DNA of 64,000 nt from Escherichia phage dhaeg: sequence record MN850609.1; one strand, 5' to 3'. Of this stretch, positions 5,599-63,931 are shown one piece after another. The notes beneath the pieces are model-generated. The model did not search any database. It saw only the letters and a list, made by a program, of their open reading frames with translations, and was not told where the DNA came from. Within the stretch, counting starts at the first letter, position 1; each line of letters opens with the position of its first letter. The translations under genes and the position numbers were made by a program.

Positions 5599-5603
5599 TC
5601 AAA

Positions 5604-5629
5604 GGTCTCACTTCGGTGGGACCTTTTTT
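5604..5629 (+). terminator. rho-independent terminator
   Basis: GGTCTCAC-TTCG-GTGGGACC hairpin plus T6. Confidence 0.75.
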
Positions 5630-8906: not shown

Positions 8907-9102
8907 AGAAGAAATCAAGGTTTTCCTGTCATATGGAAGACCTCATAAAACCTGTCGTTGGTATCTTGAAGTAGTTTGTAGAGAAACCGGTAGACGAATC
9001 AATTTCAAGTACGTATGCAAGCCTACGTCTAAGCAGATAAGACGGTGTATTAACTGGGCTATCAATAATATCCGCTTCCATAATTATTGGAGCGCAATTT
9101 AG
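8878..9102 (+). CDS. hypothetical basic Cys-containing protein
   Basis: 74-aa ORF overlapping end of upstream gene; stop abuts terminator. Confidence 0.3.
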   Translation: MTTTTLITAKEEIKVFLSYGRPHKTCRWYLEVVCRETGRRINFKYVCKPTSKQIRRCINWAINNIRFHNYWSAI

Positions 9103-9124
9103 GAACCTTCGGGTTCCTTTTTTT
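9102..9124 (+). terminator. rho-independent terminator (GGAACC-TTCG-GGTTCC + T7), copy 1 of repeated cassette
   Basis: perfect hairpin plus T-tract; identical hairpin at about 43401 and 63909. Confidence 0.8.
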
Positions 9125-10544: not shown

Positions 10545-10573
10545 GTTTACATCTCCAGTAGAAATGATACTAT
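10545..10573 (+). promoter_or_regulatory. early promoter (GTTTAC / TACTAT) with spacer/SD inverted repeat
   Basis: GTTTAC, 17 bp, TACTAT; CTCCAGTAG vs CTAATGGAG. Confidence 0.65.
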
Positions 10574-10599
10574 AGACCTATCAACTAATGGAGGTTATC

Positions 10600-11124
10600 A
10601 TGAACGCTAAAGATATTTTTTCACTGATTAATTTTAACAATGGTAATTTCAAATCTGAAAAACAAAGCAAGTTCTTTAACGACGTTGCTTGTGGTAATGA
10701 GATTACCGTATCTGGAGGAGAGATTTACAAAAGCCGTTGGAACTGGATTGTTATCATCGATTCAGTTGGTATTGTAGAGCTCTATAAAAACACTAACAAA
10801 AAACGTACTCTTCACTGGAGTCGTGAAACCAATCAAGCTTATCAAGCCGAGCGTAATAAACGTTTAATGCCTACTGAATCTGACCTGGCAAACGTTAAAT
10901 CAGATATCGCTTATTTTGATAACTTGATTGCCGAACAACAAGCGGTTATTGATAAGTTTGACGAAATCAAAGCTTGTAAAGAGATTCCTGAATTTATGCG
11001 GGAATCAGTAAACGAACAGTATGCCCTCACTTCAGGTCGTATCGAGCAGTACAAATCACAACGAGCTGAACGCCAAGCTCTGCTTCAGAAATTTGAAGAG
11101 CGTTTAAAGACGGTTCTCGCATAA
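10600..11124 (+). CDS. hypothetical protein with C-terminal coiled-coil tail
   Basis: ATG after GGAGG RBS; heptad-like C-terminus. Confidence 0.5.
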   Translation: MNAKDIFSLINFNNGNFKSEKQSKFFNDVACGNEITVSGGEIYKSRWNWIVIIDSVGIVELYKNTNKKRTLHWSRETNQAYQAERNKRLMPTESDLANVKSDIAYFDNLIAEQQAVIDKFDEIKACKEIPEFMRESVNEQYALTSGRIEQYKSQRAERQALLQKFEERLKTVLA

Positions 11125-17430: not shown

Positions 17431-17459
17431 GTTTACTTCCTCTCCTCACGTGTTATAGT
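17431..17459 (+). promoter_or_regulatory. early promoter (GTTTAC / TATAGT) with 13-bp spacer/SD inverted repeat
   Basis: TCTCCTCACGTGT vs ACACATGAGGAGA. Confidence 0.6.
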
Positions 17460-17488
17460 CTATCCTATCAACACATGAGGAGAACATT

Positions 17489-17665
17489 ATGACTATCCAA
17501 GATAAAGAAATTAAAGTCCACCAGTATTATTCAATCAACGGCAAAGCTGTTCTAGTAACTGAAATATCTAGCCTGGACGTGTGGTATACCATAATTGACC
17601 TTAATATTAAAATGATTTGTGACCGTGGTGTATTTTGTTCGATAGCTAAGGAAATTAAATTATGA
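17489..17665 (+). CDS. hypothetical small protein (unlisted ORF)
   Basis: 58 codons read by hand; GAGGAG RBS; ATGA overlap downstream. Confidence 0.4.
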   Translation: MTIQDKEIKVHQYYSINGKAVLVTEISSLDVWYTIIDLNIKMICDRGVFCSIAKEIKL

Positions 17666-18552: not shown

Positions 18553-18581
18553 TTTACAAACTCTTGGGACCAGAGTATAAT
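18552..18581 (+). promoter_or_regulatory. early promoter (GTTTAC / TATAAT) with palindrome GGGACCA/TGGTCCC bracketing the -10
   Basis: GTTTAC, 18 bp, TATAAT; perfect 7-bp inverted repeat. Confidence 0.6.
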
Positions 18582-18620
18582 GGTCCCACGGATTATAAAT
18601 TTTAAACTGAGGAAATTATT

Positions 18621-24322: not shown

Positions 24323-24510
24323 GTGATTTTATAACAGGCCAGCATTTGTTGGCCGTTCCAGAAATAAAGAGATACGTTTTAGTTAACAACTTCTCTGGAG
24401 ATGAACATCTTGTTACTGAAGAATATCTCCAAAATGCTTTTAAGTCAGAATATGATAAAATCATGTCAAATAGAAATCCAGCATGGTTTGTCTACGAGTA
24501 CTTTGATTAA
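24319..24510 (+). CDS. hypothetical protein
   Basis: 63-aa ORF, ATGA overlap. Confidence 0.4.
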   Translation: MSDFITGQHLLAVPEIKRYVLVNNFSGDEHLVTEEYLQNAFKSEYDKIMSNRNPAWFVYEYFD

Positions 24511-30677: not shown

Positions 30678-30707
30678 GTTTACATACCACATGGAACGTG
30701 GTAGTAT
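30678..30707 (+). promoter_or_regulatory. early promoter (GTTTAC / TAGTAT)
   Basis: GTTTAC, 18 bp, TAGTAT, CCTATCAACT block. Confidence 0.55.
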
Positions 30708-37549: not shown

Positions 37550-38973
37550 AAACTATTTTGGCTCAACTGCTAGGCAATAGTGATTATTTCACTAAGGTCT
37601 GGCCTTATATGAATGATTCTTATTTTGACCAGGGTCCGGCAAAGACCCTTTTCAAAGAAATAAAAAAACATGTCAATGAATATAATGCGGTGCCTTCTAA
37701 AAATGCTTTGAGTATTGCATTAGATAACAGCACCCTTTCAGAAGTTGAACACCAAGGAGCTAAAGAGCTTTTAAATTCTCTGAATGCAGGCCCTGAAGAC
37801 CAAGAATGGTTGGTTAAAGAGACAGAGAAATATGTTCAGAAGGCAGCGATGTATAATGCCACTTCAAAAATTATTGAAATTCAAACTAATGCCGACCTTC
37901 CGGTTGAGCAACAAAATAGAAAACTCCCAGGTATTGGTGCCATTCCGGATATCATGCGCGATGCATTATCGATTTGTTTCGATTCTGAATTAGGCCATGA
38001 CTGGATGGATGACTATGAAGAACGTTTTAAAAGTTATTCTGATAAAGCCCGTAAGGTTCCATTCCGTCTTAATATTCTGAATAAGATTACCAAGGGTGGC
38101 GCTGAGTTTGGTACTGAAAACGTATTGTTGGCAGGAACAAACGTAGGTAAGTCTCTTGGACTATGTTCATTGGCTGCTGATTACCTTCAATCCGGTTATG
38201 ATGTTCTTTATATCTCCATGGAGATGGCAGAGGAAGTATGTGCTAAGCGTATCGATGCCAACCTTCTGGATGTATCACTGGATGATATTGATGATGGTCA
38301 CGTCTCATGGCCTGAATATAAAGCTAAGATGGATAAGTGGCGTTCAACTGCTACTTTAGGTCGTTTAAAGATTAAACAGTACCCTACTGGTGGTGCTAAT
38401 GCCGATACATTCCGTGCATTATTAAACGAATACAAGCTCAAACAAAACTTTGTCCCACAGGTCGTTATCGTCGACTACTTGGCTATCTGTGCTTCATCTC
38501 GTACGAAAGTTTTCTCTGAAAACAGTTACGGATTGATTAAGATGGTTGCCGAAGAACTACGTGGCCTTGCAGTAGAGAAGAAATTATTGCTGTGGACTGC
38601 AGCCCAGACTACTCGTGGTGCGAATGTTGCGGCCGAAATCGATATGGCCGATATTGCTGAATCCTTTGGTATTGCACATACGGCAGACTTCATGTTAGGT
38701 GTGGTCGAGACAGAAGAGTTTGCTCAGATGGGTATGCAGATGGTTAAGCAGCTTAAATCTCGTTATGGCGATAAGAGCTACTACAACAAATTTAAGATTG
38801 GTGTTAAGAAAGGAAACCAGCGTTGGTATGAAGTTGAAGACGATTCTAACCCAGGTCCAGTGAACACCGTTCGTGAGGCTACAGGTGAAATGAACCGCCA
38901 AGCAGAGGTCAATCGCCAGTCGCGTGTTAATAGAAGCGATTTAGACGATTTAGCAGCATCTATCAAATTTTAA
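37543..38973 (+). CDS. 41: replicative DNA helicase gp41 (DnaB-like)
   Basis: Walker A GTNVGKS; similarity recalled to T4 gp41; GTG start after GAGGTGG RBS (listed ORF begins 37534). Confidence 0.85.
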   Translation: MVETILAQLLGNSDYFTKVWPYMNDSYFDQGPAKTLFKEIKKHVNEYNAVPSKNALSIALDNSTLSEVEHQGAKELLNSLNAGPEDQEWLVKETEKYVQKAAMYNATSKIIEIQTNADLPVEQQNRKLPGIGAIPDIMRDALSICFDSELGHDWMDDYEERFKSYSDKARKVPFRLNILNKITKGGAEFGTENVLLAGTNVGKSLGLCSLAADYLQSGYDVLYISMEMAEEVCAKRIDANLLDVSLDDIDDGHVSWPEYKAKMDKWRSTATLGRLKIKQYPTGGANADTFRALLNEYKLKQNFVPQVVIVDYLAICASSRTKVFSENSYGLIKMVAEELRGLAVEKKLLLWTAAQTTRGANVAAEIDMADIAESFGIAHTADFMLGVVETEEFAQMGMQMVKQLKSRYGDKSYYNKFKIGVKKGNQRWYEVEDDSNPGPVNTVREATGEMNRQAEVNRQSRVNRSDLDDLAASIKF

Positions 38974-38993
38974 GGAGCTTCGGCTCCTTTTTT
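38974..38993 (+). terminator. rho-independent terminator
   Basis: GGAGC-TTCG-GCTCC plus T6. Confidence 0.75.
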
Positions 38994-39002
38994 GTTTTAA
39001 GG

Positions 39003-39031
39003 GTTTACTTCTCCTGTAGGCATGATACTAT
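39003..39031 (+). promoter_or_regulatory. early promoter (GTTTAC / TACTAT)
   Basis: GTTTAC, 17 bp, TACTAT, AGACCTATCAACT. Confidence 0.65.
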
Positions 39032-39055
39032 AGACCTATCAACTTGGAGAACAAA

Positions 39056-39373
39056 ATGAAAACCATCGACTGTAAAGCAGAATATAAAGTGTATTATCAT
39101 GGAAGTTGTAGTGTTGCTAATATTGGTAATATGCTTTGTCCTCCTGAGGAAACAGGAGTTCTGTCTGAAACTGGTCGTAAGAAAAACCTAAATCGTGTGT
39201 TCTTTACTGAGGACATTGGTTTGGCTAAGATTTATGCTGGACGAGCTGCTCGTTCGGTGGGAGGAGAACCTCGTCTTTATCGTGTAATTGCTCCGGTAGA
39301 TGTGGTTTGTTTAAATGATACCAAAGGCGCTACGGTTTATCACGCTGAATGGGCCTTCTGTGAGGAAATCTAA
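39056..39373 (+). CDS. hypothetical protein
   Basis: internal ATG with GGAG RBS in ORF 39044-39373. Confidence 0.45.
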   Translation: MKTIDCKAEYKVYYHGSCSVANIGNMLCPPEETGVLSETGRKKNLNRVFFTEDIGLAKIYAGRAARSVGGEPRLYRVIAPVDVVCLNDTKGATVYHAEWAFCEEI

Positions 39374-39959: not shown

Positions 39960-39989
39960 GTTTACATCGGTCTATGGTAGTGATACTAT
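39960..39989 (+). promoter_or_regulatory. early promoter (GTTTAC / TACTAT)
   Basis: GTTTAC, 18 bp, TACTAT, AGACCTATCAACT. Confidence 0.65.
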
Positions 39990-40017
39990 AGACCTATCAA
40001 CTAATGAGGAGTTAAAA

Positions 40018-43394: not shown

Positions 43395-43400
43395 TTATAA

Positions 43401-43422
43401 GGAACCTTCGGGTTCCTTTTTT
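43401..43422 (+). terminator. rho-independent terminator (GGAACC-TTCG-GGTTCC + T6), copy 2
   Basis: identical hairpin to those at 9102 and 63909. Confidence 0.8.
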
Positions 43423-45043: not shown

Positions 45044-45276
45044 TGAATTGGCTAACAAATATACCTACATCGGCATTAGATATAGACCGTAAACAAGCTC
45101 GTAAGGAAATCGAGCAAAAAAATATTCAGGCAAAAGCTCCTAAGATTATGACCAAGGCGCCGGAAATAAAAAGCTCTTATCAACCAAAAAGCTCTTATAC
45201 TTCATATACCCAATCCTTAACAGGCCAAGCTGCTGACATTGCAGTGTTTGGCGTCCCACTTGGTGTGTTTAAGTAG
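45043..45276 (+). CDS. hypothetical protein
   Basis: internal ATG at TAATG junction of ORF 45022-45276. Confidence 0.4.
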   Translation: MNWLTNIPTSALDIDRKQARKEIEQKNIQAKAPKIMTKAPEIKSSYQPKSSYTSYTQSLTGQAADIAVFGVPLGVFK

Positions 45277-45304
45277 TTTACACCTCCTCCCTTCATGTTA
45301 TAAT
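45276..45304 (+). promoter_or_regulatory. early promoter (GTTTAC / TATAAT)
   Basis: GTTTAC, 17 bp, TATAAT; ACCTCC in spacer complementary to downstream GGAGGT SD. Confidence 0.6.
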
Positions 45305-45328
45305 GACCTCTAAATCACTGGAGGTCAT

Positions 45329-45898
45329 ATGAACATCGAACAAAAATGTCTTTATCAAGACCGAATCAATTCTAAATTTTCAAAATCTGAACAAGCGTTG
45401 TTAGAGAAATGTCTGGATGCCAAAAAAGACCCTAACTTCCATTATGACCTAGACAAACTAGTTCGTAAGCATGTTACTTCGGTCGTTCCGGTAGAGCTTT
45501 ATCGTGGGATTACTCCAAGAGAACTTGAGCAACTTGAAGTTCTTTCTGTCGGATGCCAGTGGTCTCCCGGCCGTGTTACTTCTTTTAGTACACAATACTC
45601 TCAGGCTCGTCAGTTCGCAGGGGCGTGGGAATATGGAACTAAAACCATCTTAAGTCTCAGGAATGCACCGTTCATTTTCGACTACTACAATCATGCTATC
45701 GACCTTGTTCTTGCAGGGAATGTGGACGAACTTGAAATAGATGAAACCCGGATAGACCTCTATGATATGGTCGAAACTGAATGTGAGTTCATGGTCTCTA
45801 GTCTATCACGGTTCGAGATTGTGGAAATCGAAACTATCAAAAGAGACCCATACGAAATCGAGTACAAAATAATTCATTTAAAAATGTTAGATTTTTAG
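45329..45898 (+). CDS. modB: mono-ADP-ribosyltransferase, Mod family (modB position)
   Basis: 189 aa; R-S-ExE class motifs LYRG, SFS, ECEF; paralog of next gene; synteny between soc and dda. Confidence 0.6.
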   Translation: MNIEQKCLYQDRINSKFSKSEQALLEKCLDAKKDPNFHYDLDKLVRKHVTSVVPVELYRGITPRELEQLEVLSVGCQWSPGRVTSFSTQYSQARQFAGAWEYGTKTILSLRNAPFIFDYYNHAIDLVLAGNVDELEIDETRIDLYDMVETECEFMVSSLSRFEIVEIETIKRDPYEIEYKIIHLKMLDF

Positions 45899-47756: not shown

Positions 47757-49084
47757 TTACATTTGAAGACTTGAACATCGGCCAGAGGACGGCCTTTAAA
47801 GAAATCATTGAAGCTATTAAACGACGTAAGGGCGAATGGATTACATTGAATGGTCCTGCCGGTACAGGTAAAACGACCCTTACTAAATTTATTCTTGACC
47901 ACTTAGTCAAGAATGGCGAACTCGGAGTTATTTTGACCGCACCCACACACGCGGCCAAGAAGGTATTGTCGAAACTCGCAGGCCAAGAAGCATCGACAAT
48001 CCACCGAATCTTAAAGATTAACCCGACTACATACGAAGACCAGGATATTTTTGAACAGCGTGAAGCTCCTGACTTGAGCAAATGTAATGTTCTTGTGGTC
48101 GACGAAGGCTCAATGATTGACGGTAAGTTGTTTAAGATTATCGAAGCATCGGTTCCACCATGGTGCACTGTACTAGGGATTGGCGACCGAGCTCAGTTAC
48201 AGCCAGTAGAACCTGGAAGTGATGGTAGTCCTCAGTTGTCTCCATTCTTTACCCACCCTAAAATTAAACAGCTACACCTTACTGAAGTAATGCGTAGTAA
48301 TGCTCCTATCATTGAGGTTGCTACTGAAATCCGTAATGGTGGATGGTTCCGAGATTGTATATTCGAAGGCCATGGTGTCCATGGTTTCAAATCTCAAACA
48401 GCCTTAAAAGATTTTATGATGAATTATTTTTCCATCGTAAAAGATGCCGATGCCTTGTTTGAGAACCGGATGTTTGCTTATACGAATAAATCGGTTGAAA
48501 AGCTGAATAGCATTATTCGTAAAAAGCTTTATGAAACCGATGCGCCTTATATCAAGGGTGAAATCCTCGTGATGCAAGAGCCTTTTATGAAGGAGCTTGA
48601 ATACGACGGTAAGAAATTCTCTGAAACCATTTTTAATAACGGGCAAATGGTTCGTATTTTAGATGTGAACCATACCTCATTGTTCTTGTCTGCCAAGGAT
48701 GTAGGCACTCGCCAGATGATTAATTACTGGGACCTCCAGGTTGAATCTATCGATGAAGATGACGAGTACTACGTAGAACACTTGAAAGTTATTGATGAGG
48801 CTTCAGTTGAGAAGTTCCATTATTTCTTGGCTAAGGTGGCTACTGAGTACAAGGCTATGCGTGGAACCGGTAAGAAACCTAAGTGGGCTGATTTCTGGAA
48901 AGCCAAGAGAATGTTCACTAAGGTTAGAGCTCTTCCGGTGAGCACTGTTCATAAATCACAAGGCCTTACTGTCCAAAACAGTTTCATCTATACTCCGTGC
49001 ATGCACATGGCTGATGCGAATTTAGCTTCACAGCTGGCTTATGTTAGTATTACCCGTGCTCGTACTGATGCCTATTATGTTTGA
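47753..49084 (+). CDS. dda: Dda DNA helicase (SF1B)
   Basis: 443 aa; Walker A GPAGTGKTT; strong similarity recalled to T4 Dda throughout. Confidence 0.9.
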   Translation: MITFEDLNIGQRTAFKEIIEAIKRRKGEWITLNGPAGTGKTTLTKFILDHLVKNGELGVILTAPTHAAKKVLSKLAGQEASTIHRILKINPTTYEDQDIFEQREAPDLSKCNVLVVDEGSMIDGKLFKIIEASVPPWCTVLGIGDRAQLQPVEPGSDGSPQLSPFFTHPKIKQLHLTEVMRSNAPIIEVATEIRNGGWFRDCIFEGHGVHGFKSQTALKDFMMNYFSIVKDADALFENRMFAYTNKSVEKLNSIIRKKLYETDAPYIKGEILVMQEPFMKELEYDGKKFSETIFNNGQMVRILDVNHTSLFLSAKDVGTRQMINYWDLQVESIDEDDEYYVEHLKVIDEASVEKFHYFLAKVATEYKAMRGTGKKPKWADFWKAKRMFTKVRALPVSTVHKSQGLTVQNSFIYTPCMHMADANLASQLAYVSITRARTDAYYV

Positions 49085-49091
49085 GGAAAAT

Positions 49092-49331
49092 ATGATTAAA
49101 GTAACTAAAGACCAGTTTTATAAGTTGAAATTTGAGACGGAATATATTATTAAGGTCAATCAAGACAATACCAATATCCGTGGCAAGGCTCATAAGGTCT
49201 TGCATTCACTTAAAGAGATTGAAAGTGATTTTATTGCAGTGCAAAAACTGATGGACGACAATATCTCTTCGGTTTATATTGAAGACTATACGGTCGGCCA
49301 AATCCGAGACCTTATGAGGTATGTTAAATGA
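49092..49331 (+). CDS. hypothetical protein
   Basis: internal ATG with GAGGAAAA RBS in ORF 49041-49331. Confidence 0.45.
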   Translation: MIKVTKDQFYKLKFETEYIIKVNQDNTNIRGKAHKVLHSLKEIESDFIAVQKLMDDNISSVYIEDYTVGQIRDLMRYVK

Positions 49332-50002
49332 AAGATATAATTATTGACTTCGAAACCTTTGCTACTACTCAAAATGCGGCGGTTATTGACCTCGCCGTAA
49401 TTGCTTATGACCCCAATCCAGAGGTAGTAGAATCTTTTGAAGAGCTTACACAACGCGGCCTTCGTATTAAATTCGATTTGGCTTCTCAACGTGATAAACG
49501 TCTGTTCTCTAAAAGCACATTGCAGTGGTGGAAAGAACAAGGACCTGAAGCACGTAAAAACCTGGCTCCGTCTGAAATTGATGTGAGTACTTCTATCGGC
49601 CTTGGTAATTTCTTGGAATACTGCCGTAAAAACGAAGTGGACCAATGGAAATCCCAGATGTGGTGCCGTGGAATGTCCTTTGACTTTCCGATCTTAGTGG
49701 ACCTTATTCGCGATGCTTATCGTTCTGAAGGTGTTCCTGAGAACGAAATCGATACAACTAAGTTGGAACCGGTTAAATTCTGGAACCAACGTGATATCCG
49801 TACAGCTATTGAAGCGTATTCACTGACACGCGGATTGAGCATGTGCCCTCTGCCTAACGGAACCTTGAATGGCTTTGTTGCTCACGACTCTATCCATGAC
49901 TGTGCTAAGGATATCTTGATGCTGAAATATGCCCAACGATATGCTTTAAACCTGGAAGATGTTCCTGAGTATCCAGACCCATTAAGTATAAAAAATCGGT
50001 AA
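49328..50002 (+). CDS. dexA: exonuclease A DexA (DnaQ-like 3'-5' exonuclease)
   Basis: 224 aa; DEDD-type motifs FETF, HDSIHDC; synteny after dda. Confidence 0.7.
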   Translation: MKDIIIDFETFATTQNAAVIDLAVIAYDPNPEVVESFEELTQRGLRIKFDLASQRDKRLFSKSTLQWWKEQGPEARKNLAPSEIDVSTSIGLGNFLEYCRKNEVDQWKSQMWCRGMSFDFPILVDLIRDAYRSEGVPENEIDTTKLEPVKFWNQRDIRTAIEAYSLTRGLSMCPLPNGTLNGFVAHDSIHDCAKDILMLKYAQRYALNLEDVPEYPDPLSIKNR

Positions 50003-50006
50003 AAGT

Positions 50007-50035
50007 GTTTACTTCTCCTCATGACATGATACTAT
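50007..50035 (+). promoter_or_regulatory. early promoter (GTTTAC / TACTAT) with perfect spacer/SD inverted repeat CTCCTCATG/CATGAGGAG
   Basis: GTTTAC, 17 bp, TACTAT; 9-bp inverted repeat. Confidence 0.65.
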
Positions 50036-50061
50036 AACCCTATCAACATGAGGAGAACAAA

Positions 50062-50565
50062 ATGAAAATTTATCGAGTCGAGTCATCGTTCAGTATCTTA
50101 GATAATAGTGATGCTATCGCAATTACTCGCCAGCAATGCCGCCAATTAACACCTTATAGAGGCTCATTTGATGAATGGAGCGAAGGCTGGTTATTGGAAG
50201 TAGGTTTTGACAGGCCTAATTTTAGACACCATCATACTAATAATAAAAGCATCCCACTACCAAGTCAAGATGAATTGTTGGTTAAAAATTCTAATGCAGT
50301 AATTAAAACCAAATTCGAACATGAAGATTATAAAGGTGTAGATAACTATATCCCTGGTTGGTTTGTTAACCTCTACCATTTTGCTTTTGCCAGCGAGTAT
50401 GATATGATGCGCTGGTTCACTCGTGAAGAGCGTGCGGAATTATCTTCTAAAGGATTCTACCTTGCTGTTTACGAAATCCCTGAAGATGAGGTTGTCATTG
50501 GTGACCGCCAAGTAATGTTCCGCAAATCCCATGCTGAACTCGTAGATTTTATTGAAATGAGATAA
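50062..50565 (+). CDS. hypothetical protein
   Basis: 167-aa ORF. Confidence 0.5.
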   Translation: MKIYRVESSFSILDNSDAIAITRQQCRQLTPYRGSFDEWSEGWLLEVGFDRPNFRHHHTNNKSIPLPSQDELLVKNSNAVIKTKFEHEDYKGVDNYIPGWFVNLYHFAFASEYDMMRWFTREERAELSSKGFYLAVYEIPEDEVVIGDRQVMFRKSHAELVDFIEMR

Positions 50566-50567
50566 TT

Positions 50568-51119
50568 ATGAAATTTAATTATAATCCTAAATACACACCG
50601 AACCCAGCAGCCAAATTGATTGATTTTGATGTTTTAAGCACTTATGTGGCCCCTATTGAACCATTAGAAATTAAGGAAACCACTATGACTACTCAGACTA
50701 TCGAAATCGGCAAAACCTACAAACTGGTTGAACCTGAAATTAAAACTAAGGCCTTGATTTCTGGTTATAAAACTCTGACTGATGTTTTTGGCGAAGGCGA
50801 ATTTATTGTTGAAGAATTCGCCAAAAGTGACTGGTTTACTAAATCTTACGTAATCCACGGCCGCCGGTTAGATAATAATAGAATAGAGAAAACCCTAGTC
50901 TATGAAGCTGAATTTGGGCTTTTCCGTGAAGTCAGAGTCGAACAAGACCCTACCGACCTGTTGTGTGCTGCTGTGGCTATCCGTCGTCCTTTTGATAATC
51001 CTATCTGTGGTTGGGTAACAGACCAATGGATTGAAGATGGTGTTGAACTGCTGAACGTTGTACATGCTGGTGATTTTAGCATAGTACCTCGTAGTGCAGT
51101 GGTTAATGTATTGAATTAA
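50568..51119 (+). CDS. hypothetical protein, paralog family member A
   Basis: 183 aa; C-terminal TDQWIEDGVELLNVVHAGDF shared with next gene. Confidence 0.5.
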   Translation: MKFNYNPKYTPNPAAKLIDFDVLSTYVAPIEPLEIKETTMTTQTIEIGKTYKLVEPEIKTKALISGYKTLTDVFGEGEFIVEEFAKSDWFTKSYVIHGRRLDNNRIEKTLVYEAEFGLFREVRVEQDPTDLLCAAVAIRRPFDNPICGWVTDQWIEDGVELLNVVHAGDFSIVPRSAVVNVLN

Positions 51120-51121
51120 TA

Positions 51122-51150
51122 GTTTACTTTATCGAGAGCCATGTTATAAT
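51122..51150 (+). promoter_or_regulatory. early promoter (GTTTAC / TATAAT) with palindrome GAGAGCCAT/ATGGCTCTC bracketing the -10
   Basis: GTTTAC, 17 bp, TATAAT; perfect 9-bp inverted repeat. Confidence 0.6.
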
Positions 51151-51192
51151 GGCTCTCATGGATTATAAACCTTTAACCAAGAGAGAAAAATT

Positions 51193-51759
51193 ATGATTAC
51201 TATTTCCGATATCGGCAGTATCGTTCGTGTATCCAAAAAGTCTCGTTCAAAAGCTGCGGGCAGTTTAGTTGAAGTTGTTAGCATCCAACTTAAAGAAGGT
51301 GTCAGTGAAGAAAATTATGAAGTAAAAGTTCGTATCATTCCTAAAAATCGCCAGACTGAAACTCAATTCGGTTATGTGCGTGCTAAATTCTTGGAATCGA
51401 CTGAATTTACCGGATACATCGCTCCTGTAGTTGAAGAAGTTGAATCCCATGATGGGTATGTATGTGAAAGCAATGATATCCGTGGCGTAGTAGCTCAAGA
51501 CATTGAAACTATTGACCAATCTCATGTCGGCGTTGATTTCAAATGGAAATTAGGTCGAGGAGTGTGTTTTAATACTCCTAAACCGTTCAAATATGTTGAC
51601 GAACCTTTTGGTACTTACGAAACCAGTAGCATGTCTGGTTACATCACAGACCAGTGGGTTGAAGGTGGCGTTAAGCTCTATAACATCGTGTTCCTTGGAA
51701 CCTTTAAAGTGGTTCCTGAAAGCTTTATTGTTGAATATGCTAATATTCATCGTGCATAA
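51193..51759 (+). CDS. hypothetical protein, paralog family member B
   Basis: 188 aa; C-terminal TDQWVEGGVKLYNIVFLGTF shared with upstream gene. Confidence 0.5.
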   Translation: MITISDIGSIVRVSKKSRSKAAGSLVEVVSIQLKEGVSEENYEVKVRIIPKNRQTETQFGYVRAKFLESTEFTGYIAPVVEEVESHDGYVCESNDIRGVVAQDIETIDQSHVGVDFKWKLGRGVCFNTPKPFKYVDEPFGTYETSSMSGYITDQWVEGGVKLYNIVFLGTFKVVPESFIVEYANIHRA

Positions 51760-51772
51760 AGTTTAAAAACAG

Positions 51773-51801
51773 TATACAATACGGTAGGGTAGTGATACTA
51801 T
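51773..51801 (+). promoter_or_regulatory. early-type promoter with degenerate -35 and conserved TGATACTAT -10 block
   Basis: GTGATACTATTACCCTATCAAC. Confidence 0.35.
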
Positions 51802-51831
51802 TACCCTATCAACAAATGAGAGGAAAATAAA

Positions 51832-52050
51832 ATGGCTAAAGTTACTGTGAACTCGACTCGTGAAGAATTTGAAGATGTTCTGTTCAACCCTGATTTAATC
51901 GTGGTTCAAAAGGAACATTCTGATACGTTTTCTCATTTATCGTCGGTTTATGTATACGAAAATCAAGGTGATAAAAACCCTATATATGCAGTGTTCCGTG
52001 AAATCACTGCTGAAGGCACCGACTTCTGGAAGGAAACTTACAATGCTTAA
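51832..52050 (+). CDS. hypothetical protein
   Basis: 72-aa ORF. Confidence 0.45.
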   Translation: MAKVTVNSTREEFEDVLFNPDLIVVQKEHSDTFSHLSSVYVYENQGDKNPIYAVFREITAEGTDFWKETYNA

Positions 52051-52664: not shown

Positions 52665-52925
52665 ATGAAATACGTTAATCGTTCTATTGCAGCTCTGGTA
52701 CTAGCAGTTTCGTTGGTTGGTTGTACTGATGCCGATAATGCCGCCCGTGTATTGGATGCAAATGGCTACAAACAAATCCAAATCACAGGATACAACCTAT
52801 TTGGCTGTTCTGAAGATGATTTCCAACGTACAGGCTTTATTGCTGTAGGTCCGACAGGTAAAAGGGTTGAAGGAACAGTTTGTTCTGGGTTATTCTTTAA
52901 AAAGTCGACCATCCGATTTGATTAA
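52665..52925 (+). CDS. lipoprotein
   Basis: 86 aa; signal peptide with lipobox LVGC. Confidence 0.5.
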   Translation: MKYVNRSIAALVLAVSLVGCTDADNAARVLDANGYKQIQITGYNLFGCSEDDFQRTGFIAVGPTGKRVEGTVCSGLFFKKSTIRFD

Positions 52926-52941
52926 GGGCTTCGGCCCTTTT
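52926..52941 (+). terminator. terminator-like hairpin (GGGC-TTCG-GCCC + T4)
   Basis: short GC stem, UUCG loop, short T-tract. Confidence 0.5.
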
Positions 52942-59835: not shown

Positions 59836-59865
59836 GTTTACATACACCATGGATGGTGTTACTAT
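59836..59865 (+). promoter_or_regulatory. early promoter (GTTTAC / TACTAT) with internal palindrome ACACCATGGATGGTGT in spacer
   Basis: GTTTAC, 18 bp, TACTAT. Confidence 0.55.
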
Positions 59866-60558: not shown

Positions 60559-60587
60559 GTTTACATCTCCATTAGACATGATATTAT
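60559..60587 (+). promoter_or_regulatory. early promoter (GTTTAC / TATTAT) with perfect spacer/SD inverted repeat CTCCATTAG/CTAATGGAG
   Basis: GTTTAC, 17 bp, TATTAT, AGACCTATCAACT. Confidence 0.65.
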
Positions 60588-60613
60588 AGACCTATCAACT
60601 AATGGAGATGATT

Positions 60614-60724
60614 ATGAAAAACTTACTTAAAGCAATTTGGAACATGTTTGTGTTATTGGTTGTATTGAGCATTTTCCCAATAGTTTTTATGATTGACCAT
60701 GTACGTGTATTCTTTAACTTCTGA
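60614..60724 (+). CDS. small membrane peptide (unlisted ORF)
   Basis: 36 codons read by hand; GGAG RBS. Confidence 0.35.
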   Translation: MKNLLKAIWNMFVLLVVLSIFPIVFMIDHVRVFFNF

Positions 60725-61339: not shown

Positions 61340-61367
61340 TTTACAACCTCGAGAATCATGTTATAAT
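61339..61367 (+). promoter_or_regulatory. early promoter (GTTTAC / TATAAT) with inverted repeat CGAGAATCAT/ATGGTTCTCG bracketing the -10
   Basis: GTTTAC, 17 bp, TATAAT; 10-bp repeat with one G-U-compatible mismatch. Confidence 0.6.
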
Positions 61368-61416
61368 GGTTCTCGTTGACTGGATAACAAAACATTAATC
61401 TACTGAGGAAATTGAT

Positions 61417-63807: not shown

Positions 63808-63908
63808 GCCTTGGAATCGAGTTCTTGTTACTCTGTATCTTTGCTGTTATCCTAGGCCTGGCGACAGGCTTAGCTATAGGTTTAATAGCAGCTCACTTTA
63901 AAAAGTAA
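63804..63908 (+). CDS. small membrane peptide (unlisted ORF)
   Basis: 34 codons read by hand; ATGA overlap with gp52. Confidence 0.3.
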   Translation: MSLGIEFLLLCIFAVILGLATGLAIGLIAAHFKK

Positions 63909-63931
63909 GGAACCTTCGGGTTCCTTTTTTT
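63909..63931 (+). terminator. rho-independent terminator (GGAACC-TTCG-GGTTCC + T7), copy 3
   Basis: identical to hairpins at 9102 and 43401. Confidence 0.8.

Follow-up and report, generated by a model that had tools for sequence, protein, structure and literature searches.

The window analysed here is a 64,000-nucleotide (nt) stretch of Escherichia phage dhaeg (MN850609.1), and the element in question is a hairpin built into the early promoter of motB at 50007-50064, with one arm in the promoter spacer and the other on the Shine-Dalgarno (SD) sequence of the gene. The window is an early and middle gene region that includes regB, gene 43, uvsX, gene 41, modA, dda, dexA and motB, and almost all of its genes lie on the + strand. 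Positions 48000-52000 match Escherichia phage CLB_P2, a JS98-like T4-type myovirus (Dhakavirus), at 100% identity, and JS98, IME281 and others reach 92-94% there. Over the first 25 kb identity to CLB_P2 is 94-99%, with indels present, so that the window is that of a very close relative. The motB cassette is composed of the following features.

50007-50012, + strand: -35 hexamer GTTTAC of the motB early promoter
50013-50023, + strand: 5' arm TTCTCCTCATG, in the promoter spacer, carried only by read-through RNA
50030-50035, + strand: -10 hexamer TACTAT, preceded by TGA and placed in the hairpin loop
50042, + strand: predicted +1, an A
50047-50057, + strand: 3' arm CATGAGGAGAA, which holds the SD
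50050-50055, + strand: SD GAGGAG, within the 3' arm
50062-50064, + strand: motB start codon ATG

The two motB arms are exact reverse complements that form 11 perfect pairs with the SD inside the 3' arm, just as an earlier, sequence-only reading of this stretch had claimed. RNA spanning the -35 hexamer to the ATG folds at -19.4 kcal/mol with z = -6.8, and 0 of 200 shuffles were equally stable, whereas RNA beginning at the predicted +1 had no significant structure (z = +0.75). Within the same cassette, TGATA of the extended -10 and TATCA at +1, both of them conserved, are complementary to each other (50027-50045, with equivalents in other cassettes). This pairing makes a 5-base-pair (bp) inner helix in the loop of the SD hairpins, and the promoter in its entirety forms a long, imperfect palindrome with the -10 at its centre.

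A pattern scan of the + strand of the window recovered about 23 strong early promoters of the form GTTTAC-N17/18-TAnnAT, many of which share the extended consensus GTTTAC(a/t)TCTCC...ATGA-TACTAT-AGACCTATCAAC-TAATGAGGAGA...ATG. Early promoters of RB69, RB49 and 44RR are C-rich at -3 to -1, and the predicted RB49 early consensus is consistent with 5'-end mapping (Nolan 2006, PMC1524935). Because of this rule, +1 in the window cassettes is predicted to be the A of CCT-A-TCAAC or CTATCAAC, 7 nt past the -10. The 5' arm sits between the two boxes, at -30 to -20 of a GTTTAC-N17-TAnnAT promoter and upstream of the predicted +1, so that a gene's own transcript is expected to lack it and the hairpin could therefore form only in read-through RNA, in agreement with what had been proposed. 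No Rfam family reached threshold anywhere in the window. A scan for MotA boxes returned middle-promoter-like sites at 24510, 34196, 52940 and 57661, none of them directly upstream of the focal genes.

Six further cassettes in the window pair the SD with a segment upstream of the predicted start site.

1504-1563, + strand: regB early promoter cassette, arms ATCTCCTGTAG (1510-1520) and CTACAGGAGAT (1544-1554), -10 at 1527-1532, ATG at 1561
17431-17491, + strand: early promoter cassette of a 58-residue open reading frame (ORF), arms TCTCCTCACGTGT (17441-17453) and ACACATGAGGAGA (17471-17483), ATG at 17489
60559-60616, + strand: early promoter cassette of a small ORF (MKNLLKAI...), arms ATCTCCATTAG (60565-60575) and CTAATGGAGAT (60599-60609), ATG at 60614
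10545-10602, + strand: decayed copy, arms ATCTCCAGTAG (10551-10561) and CTAATGGAGGT (10585-10595), one mismatch
39003-39058, + strand: decayed copy, TTCTCC (39009-39014) and GGAGAA (39046-39051), 6 bp left
45276-45331, + strand: modA early promoter, SD and start codon in GGAGGTCAT (45320-45328), paired with ATGACCTCT (45303-45311)

In this SD class the 3' arm is the SD itself and lies at about +5 to +17. Strong promoter-specific pairing is found at 4 of the 23 early promoters, namely 1504 (regB), 17431, 50007 (motB) and 60559. The regB cassette, whose gene we take to be regB from its N-terminus MSEINSEVFIRRNKLRR by comparison with T4 RegB, has 11 perfect bp at -18.3 kcal/mol; its 3' arm had earlier been placed one nucleotide off, in a pairing of 1512-1520 with 1543-1551 that otherwise stood. 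The 11 perfect bp at 60559 (-19.8 kcal/mol) bear out the proposed example at 60565. At 17431 the arms are 13 nt long and reach -21.6 kcal/mol, and although the pairing proposed at 17438 was recovered, it starts three nucleotides away and contains one C·A mismatch instead of being an exact reverse complement. The pairing given for 10551 was likewise recovered with one mismatch, and relatives carry a better-paired arm, CTACTGGAGGT. The decayed copy at 39003 is preceded by an intrinsic terminator at 38972-38989 and has a 14-bp helix in a relative. At modA, the complementarity proposed between ACCTCC (45282-45287, in the spacer) and GGAGGT exists as an alternative of 6 bp only, and it did not hold up as the stable fold since the minimum-free-energy structure uses ATGACCTCT, an arm that overlaps the -10 and discriminator and is also upstream of +1.

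The folding comparison between read-through and promoter-proximal 5' ends, which had been suggested as a check, came out as anticipated. Read-through RNAs had z = -3.1 to -6.8 and proximal RNAs were unstructured, with z = -0.1 to +1.8. Minimum-free-energy and ensemble folds both pair the SD in read-through RNA, and at six promoters the cost of opening the translation initiation region (TIR) was 7.6 to 16.2 kcal/mol higher there.

Chance pairing was evaluated by pairing every promoter's spacer with every promoter's leader, a control in which the common CTCC/GGAG composition is retained. With the whole leader included, own pairs averaged -9.7 kcal/mol and cross pairs -7.3 (permutation p ~5e-6), a signal that mixes SD-pairing stems with stems closing right past the -10. 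In the SD region, taken as the 20 nt before the ATG, own pairs of -14 kcal/mol or lower were found in 4 of 23 promoters as opposed to 2% of cross pairs, which by a hand binomial estimate corresponds to ~1e-3, and four own pairs ranked first or second against all cross pairs. Opening costs scored for the TIRs of about 106 window genes gave 17489, 45329 and 50062 as the most occluded, all of them promoter-linked and all more occluded than gene 49 (16028) and soc (43161), known T4 cases that serve as positive controls. At 14.2 and 10.2 kcal/mol the latter two are among the most occluded of the non-promoter TIRs, which matches known T4 regulation. The TIR opening costs of genes 41 (37609) and 61 (41154) are likewise high.

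The pairing was then followed in relatives. A cassette scan of IMG/VR gave 83 loci and as many distinct cassettes, in T4-like genomes of 165-175 kb, JS98-like ones among them. Among 173 distinct promoter-to-ATG cassettes, 26% had a spacer-leader helix of at least 9 bp of their own, compared to 4.6% of cross pairs. Helices of at least 8 bp comprised 33 of the SD class, 18 closing past the -10 (post -10 class) and 4 others; 33 of these 55 thus terminate right on the SD, and 17 different SD arm pairs are represented. In 76 unselected cassettes with a 17-nt spacer, read in one fixed register, 53% of cells pair compared to 46.4 ± 0.9% after shuffling. The covariation score in that same register was 0.245 against 0.164 ± 0.011, a value reached by 0 of 500 shuffles, and the true register beats every slid register.

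The regB promoter is the most conserved instance of SD pairing. Its main SD helix is present in four lineages with different arms: ATCTCCTGTAG/CTACAGGAGAT in Dhakavirus; TTTTCCTCTTGACTG/CAGTTAAGAGGAGAA in T4, where the gene is annotated as regB in the sequence compared and the helix has 15 bp, -22.4 kcal/mol and z = -5.8; TTCTCCTCTAGTTG/CAACTAGAGGAGAA in a third lineage; and TTTCTCCTCTTTATG/CATAAAGAGGAGAAA in a fourth. The parts of these arms that lie outside the SD differ between lineages and are TGTAG/CTACA, TCTTGACTG/CAGTTAAGA in T4, TCTAGTTG/CAACTAGA and TCTTTATG/CATAAAGA. In two further regB lineages the hairpin is bipartite: its inner stem surrounds the -10 and its outer stem takes in the SD. 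In all, SD pairing at regB is maintained in six or seven lineages, T4 among them. RNAalifold, run on a MAFFT alignment of regB promoters, recovered only a 6-bp CTCC/GGAG core because arm registers shift between lineages, and folds of the individual sequences were used instead. A second motB lineage has an unrelated 17-bp helix ending in GAGGA, variants of which have G-C replaced by G·U and G·U by A-U. Relatives form 11 pairs at the gene beginning MNAKDIF, where the window copy contains a mismatch and another lineage uses an unrelated 14-bp helix, and the gene beginning MKTIDCK has 14 bp in a relative compared to 6 bp in the window. As read from these sequences, comparison of paralogues and orthologues shows the pairing to be conserved through covariation.

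Positions inside the helices that are not Watson-Crick pairs bear on which strand pairs. Within helices of at least 8 Watson-Crick pairs, G·U on the sense strand outnumbered A·C by 24 to 4, of which the SD class contributed 10 and 2 and the post -10 class 14 and 2; a hand count with related arms removed gave about 17 to 4. A first test of this kind, on helix extension, gave 7 versus 6. As an A·C on the sense strand is a G·U on the other strand, the excess of G·U inside helices speaks for pairing of the sense transcript rather than for a symmetric DNA structure or the templated correction of palindromes. The earlier assertion that complementarity is kept while the arms differ is borne out by paralogues and by orthologues, and the orthologues and the G·U bias are evidence for selection on the pairing.

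Based on these results we consider it slightly better than an even bet, at a probability of about 0.55, that the SD is occluded specifically in read-through RNA and that translation of each such gene is essentially restricted to the time when its own early promoter is active. Some of the sigma-70-type early promoters would then be composite cassettes in which the spacer (in modA the -10 and discriminator) encodes the 5' arm of a hairpin, and the SD of the gene served by that promoter is the 3' arm. RNA from a gene's own promoter would start about 5 nt before the 3' arm, lack the 5' arm and present an open, strong translation site, and RNA from upstream promoters would contain both arms and form an 11-15 bp helix of -18 to -22 kcal/mol with the SD buried. 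Translation of regB, motB, modA and several small ORFs would as a result be limited to RNA from their own early promoters, and hence to the first minutes of infection. Complementarity, specificity, fold difference and conservation with covariation are direct observations; the position of the start site, folding in vivo and the effects on translation and on RegB cleavage we infer from sequence. T4 has middle promoters upstream of regB (Pvs.7) and motB (Pdda.1, Pdex.2) (PMC2988021 Table 1), and read-through RNA therefore exists later in infection.

A second effect is likely to involve RegB. This nuclease cuts GGAG followed by A-rich sequence in single-stranded RNA, and RNA structure blocks cleavage (PMC3014915, PMC1702504). 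The same helix should therefore protect long RNAs from RegB, so that long transcripts would be spared and short ones cut. The occluded SDs of the window consist of GGAG followed by A-rich sequence, the type of target that RegB and S1 act on in T4 early mRNAs. RegB control is cleavage in trans; the hairpin, in contrast, is an element in cis and would determine the transcripts on which RegB can act. Silencing of read-through RNA and RegB cleavage of short RNAs would together form a double lock on early protein synthesis. The untranslated gene body might in addition expose read-through RNA to Rho and thereby mimic attenuation.

Several results weigh against this interpretation. With the SD region considered by itself, the class-wide difference between own and cross pairs was not significant (p = 0.068), and promoter-proximal TIRs were as a class not significantly more occluded than the other TIRs among the roughly 106 scored (Mann-Whitney p = 0.086). 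Only 4-6 of the 23 promoters show SD pairing. One regB lineage (L092-L094) has a post -10 stem only and leaves the SD untouched, and the stem of T4 motB makes no contact with the SD. In one relative the MNAKDIF cassette is chimeric: it combines the spacer arm found at 60559, ATCTCCATTAG, with the SD arm that relatives have at 10545, CTACTGGAGG, which breaks the pairing and weakens the fold from -17 to -11 kcal/mol. The two decayed copies in the window and this chimeric cassette suggest that the constraint is weak or dispensable at some genes. Stop codons of upstream genes, finally, lie 8-11 nt before the 5' arm at 1504, 10545, 17431 and 50007, a distance at which the base of the helix could come within reach of a terminating ribosome. 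SD pairing is thus real but confined to a subset of promoters. The sequence-only reading had spoken of many early promoters, which applies to four strong cases, two or three weak ones and modA by way of a different arm but not to the rest of the 23, and its description of the pairing as systematic fails on the two class-level tests and on the count of 4 strong promoters in 23.

Occlusion of this kind has precedents in T4 e, soc, 49 and I-TevI, and also in segB and Aeh1 mobE, where SD or AUG is buried on long transcripts and RNA from an internal promoter lacks the 5' arm (PMC3014915, PMC2988022). The known cases of sequestered ribosome binding sites are all late genes with late promoters (Edgell 2010, PMC2988022). 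In all of them the internal promoter is of the gp55 late type (TATAAATA), or sometimes middle, and translation is delayed. The window promoters, unlike these, are sigma-70-type early promoters with the 5' arm in the -35/-10 spacer, the genes are immediate-early (regB, motB, modA), and the effect would be to end translation early and not to delay it. The cassettes consequently fall outside a type defined by a late or middle promoter and a late gene. The appeal made earlier to 49, e and soc therefore holds for the logic of occlusion but not for its timing (PMC2988022, PMC3014915).

The second known system is the promoter early stem-loop (PeSL), which the earlier reading had missed although the window cassettes are of this type (PMC2839356). 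As in PeSLs, intergenic cassettes are repeated, made up of a strong early promoter, a stem-loop that lies within it or overlaps it, and then an SD and ATG; in all 23 + strand cassettes a sigma-70-like early promoter precedes the next gene's SD and ATG. PeSLs are associated with indels and cassette swapping (Arbiol 2010; Comeau 2014; PMC2839356, PMC4122927), and their stems have been read as terminators or attenuators and as recombination sites; the word translation is absent from Arbiol 2010. Five stem positions are described there, namely upstream of the -35, overlapping the -35, between the boxes, overlapping the -10 and just before +1, all of which end before +1. The SD class fits none of these since its 3' arm is the SD itself, with a long loop and no U tract. 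It consists of PeSL-type cassettes with the logic of e, soc and 49 on early promoters. No description of SD-pairing hairpins at early promoters was found in the PeSL papers, T4 reviews or Nolan 2006; older literature may hold one.

Stems that do fit the published positions are also present in the window, and the 5' arm lies in the spacer in all three kinds (SD, post -10 and intra-spacer palindrome).

18565-18571 (TGGGACC) and 18582-18588 (GGTCCCA), + strand: post -10 stem of promoter 18552, encloses the -10, SD free
51134-51142 and 51149-51157, + strand: post -10 stem of promoter 51122, SD free
51785-51791 and 51802-51808, + strand: post -10 stem of promoter 51772, SD free
61350-61355 and 61370-61375, + strand: post -10 stem of promoter 61339, SD free
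39969-39975 and 39988-39994, + strand: post -10 stem of promoter 39960, SD free
59844-59859: intra-spacer palindrome ACACCAT-GG-ATGGTGT, promoter 59836
30687-30701: intra-spacer palindrome CCAC...GTGG, promoter 30678

In the post -10 class the 3' arm begins right past the -10 and the entire stem is upstream of +1. These stems and the intra-spacer palindromes match published PeSL cassettes. Promoter 18552 is nearly identical to the T4 motB promoter. Just 3' of the stems of 18552 and 51122, at ~18590-18600 and 51159-51169, lies GGATTATAAA, which resembles the T4 late promoter TATAAATA, and early and late promoters may be stacked at these two sites.

Intrinsic terminators of canonical form, with a UUCG loop, are found elsewhere.

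9101-9118, 43399-43418 and 63907-63926: near-identical UUCG-tetraloop intrinsic terminators (AAGGAACCTTCGGGTTCCTT and a T run)
38972-38989, 52924-52939 and 5601-5626: further UUCG-tetraloop terminators

Those at 9101, 43399, 63907, 38972 and 5601 make up a repeated terminator-promoter module, directly upstream of promoters 9144, 43434, 63951, 39003 and 5639, respectively; the one at 52924 is followed instead by the MotA-box-like site at 52940. Promoters 5639, 9144, 39003 and 43434 have no strong SD stem, which fits the occlusion model, although the cases are few. Promoter 63951 is cut by the end of the window, and its SD falls outside the comparison. The SD stems themselves were rejected as intrinsic terminators: measured against a GC-rich stem, a short loop and a U run they fail, with 17-23 nt loops, no U tract and A-rich sequence past the 3' arm. 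A terminator scan of the window, with loops limited to 3-8 nt, flagged no SD-class stem; the loops of these stems exceed that limit.

An alternative explanation is that the SD cassettes are ordinary PeSLs in which the stem attenuates or terminates read-through transcription and provides homology for recombination, with the overlap of the SD being incidental. The order UP/-35, stem, -10, SD and ATG matches that of PeSLs (PMC2839356, PMC4122927), stems enclosing the -10 without touching the SD occur at five window promoters, and one published PeSL stem lowered lacZ expression like a strong terminator. Traces of recombination agree with this. Only one of about six indel boundaries relative to CLB_P2 adjoins a cassette, that of regB: the ~207 nt at 1291-1497 directly upstream remained unaligned to CLB_P2 in blastn and are apparently absent from it, as CLB_P2 joins both flanks directly. 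In Dhakavirus relatives (L087-L100) two different upstream contexts are joined to the same regB cassette, and the upstream junction of regB looks like a PeSL-style recombination junction. The chimeric MNAKDIF cassette is evidence, on sequence grounds, of a crossover between cassettes. Incidental overlap is nevertheless unlikely. The form of the SD stems is not that of a terminator, genuine UUCG-loop terminators are used elsewhere in the window, and SD pairing is not among the five described PeSL subclasses. More than half of the longer helices (33 of 55) end exactly on the SD, and at one and the same gene different lineages have re-established SD pairing by means of unrelated arms.

Protection of RNA could instead be the primary role, with the helix keeping RegB off the intergenic GGAG and guarding the RNA against decay, long transcripts surviving to express distal genes, and silencing as a by-product. 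The requirement of RegB for single-stranded GGAG with an A-rich tract, the protective effect of structure, the matching form of the window SDs and the position of regB itself as the best-conserved case all speak for this. Sequence analysis by itself does not separate protection from SD occlusion. As some occluded SDs are not of the RegB type, for example GAGGAU in the second motB lineage, protection as the primary role has a rather small chance of being correct.

Translational coupling would predict that on polycistronic RNA the hidden SD becomes accessible only once the helix has been melted by a ribosome that completes the upstream gene. The stops 8-11 nt before the 5' arm at four cassettes favour it, this distance being about the reach of a terminating ribosome as given by the ribosome footprint. 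The gap is, however, 42 nt at 60559 and 26 nt to the arm actually used at modA, a terminating ribosome would open at most the first 1-2 of 11-15 pairs, and the strong promoter that these genes have of their own is left unexplained, all of which makes coupling improbable.

The absence of any RNA function, with chance pairing of a pyrimidine-rich spacer and a purine-rich SD perfected by templated quasi-palindrome mutation, for which T4 is a classic system, or with a role at the DNA level such as a cruciform or protein site, is the least credible explanation, for although even cross pairs have a mean of -6 to -7 kcal/mol, as many spacers begin TCTCC, the preponderance of G·U over A·C (24 to 4) suggests sense-strand pairing, pairing persists across genera with different arms, and a sequence-specific protein binding site was rejected since arms vary between promoters while remaining complementary.

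Returning to SD occlusion on read-through RNA, its implications extend past motB. T4-type phages shut down early protein synthesis within minutes, by a mechanism that is only partly understood according to reviews. If the occlusion model is true, a simple post-transcriptional lock ties toxic or dose-sensitive early proteins (the RNase RegB, the ADP-ribosyltransferase ModA and MotB) to the firing of their own promoters, and some of the promoter and stem-loop cassettes that shape the genomes of T4-like phages take on a role besides termination and recombination. The same kind of helix, of 15 bp, is present at the regB promoter of T4, and the idea is therefore directly testable in the model phage. 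It is conceivable, though we hold it doubtful, that across Tevenvirinae promoter-embedded hairpins act as a general licensing layer, in which the immediate-early genes that carry one would be translatable and RegB-cleavable only on RNA from their own early promoters and read-through RNA would be silent and RegB-resistant. Such a layer would, together with RegB cleavage, explain part of the rapid shut-off of early protein synthesis, and it would explain why the products of regB, modA and motB appear as a short burst only.

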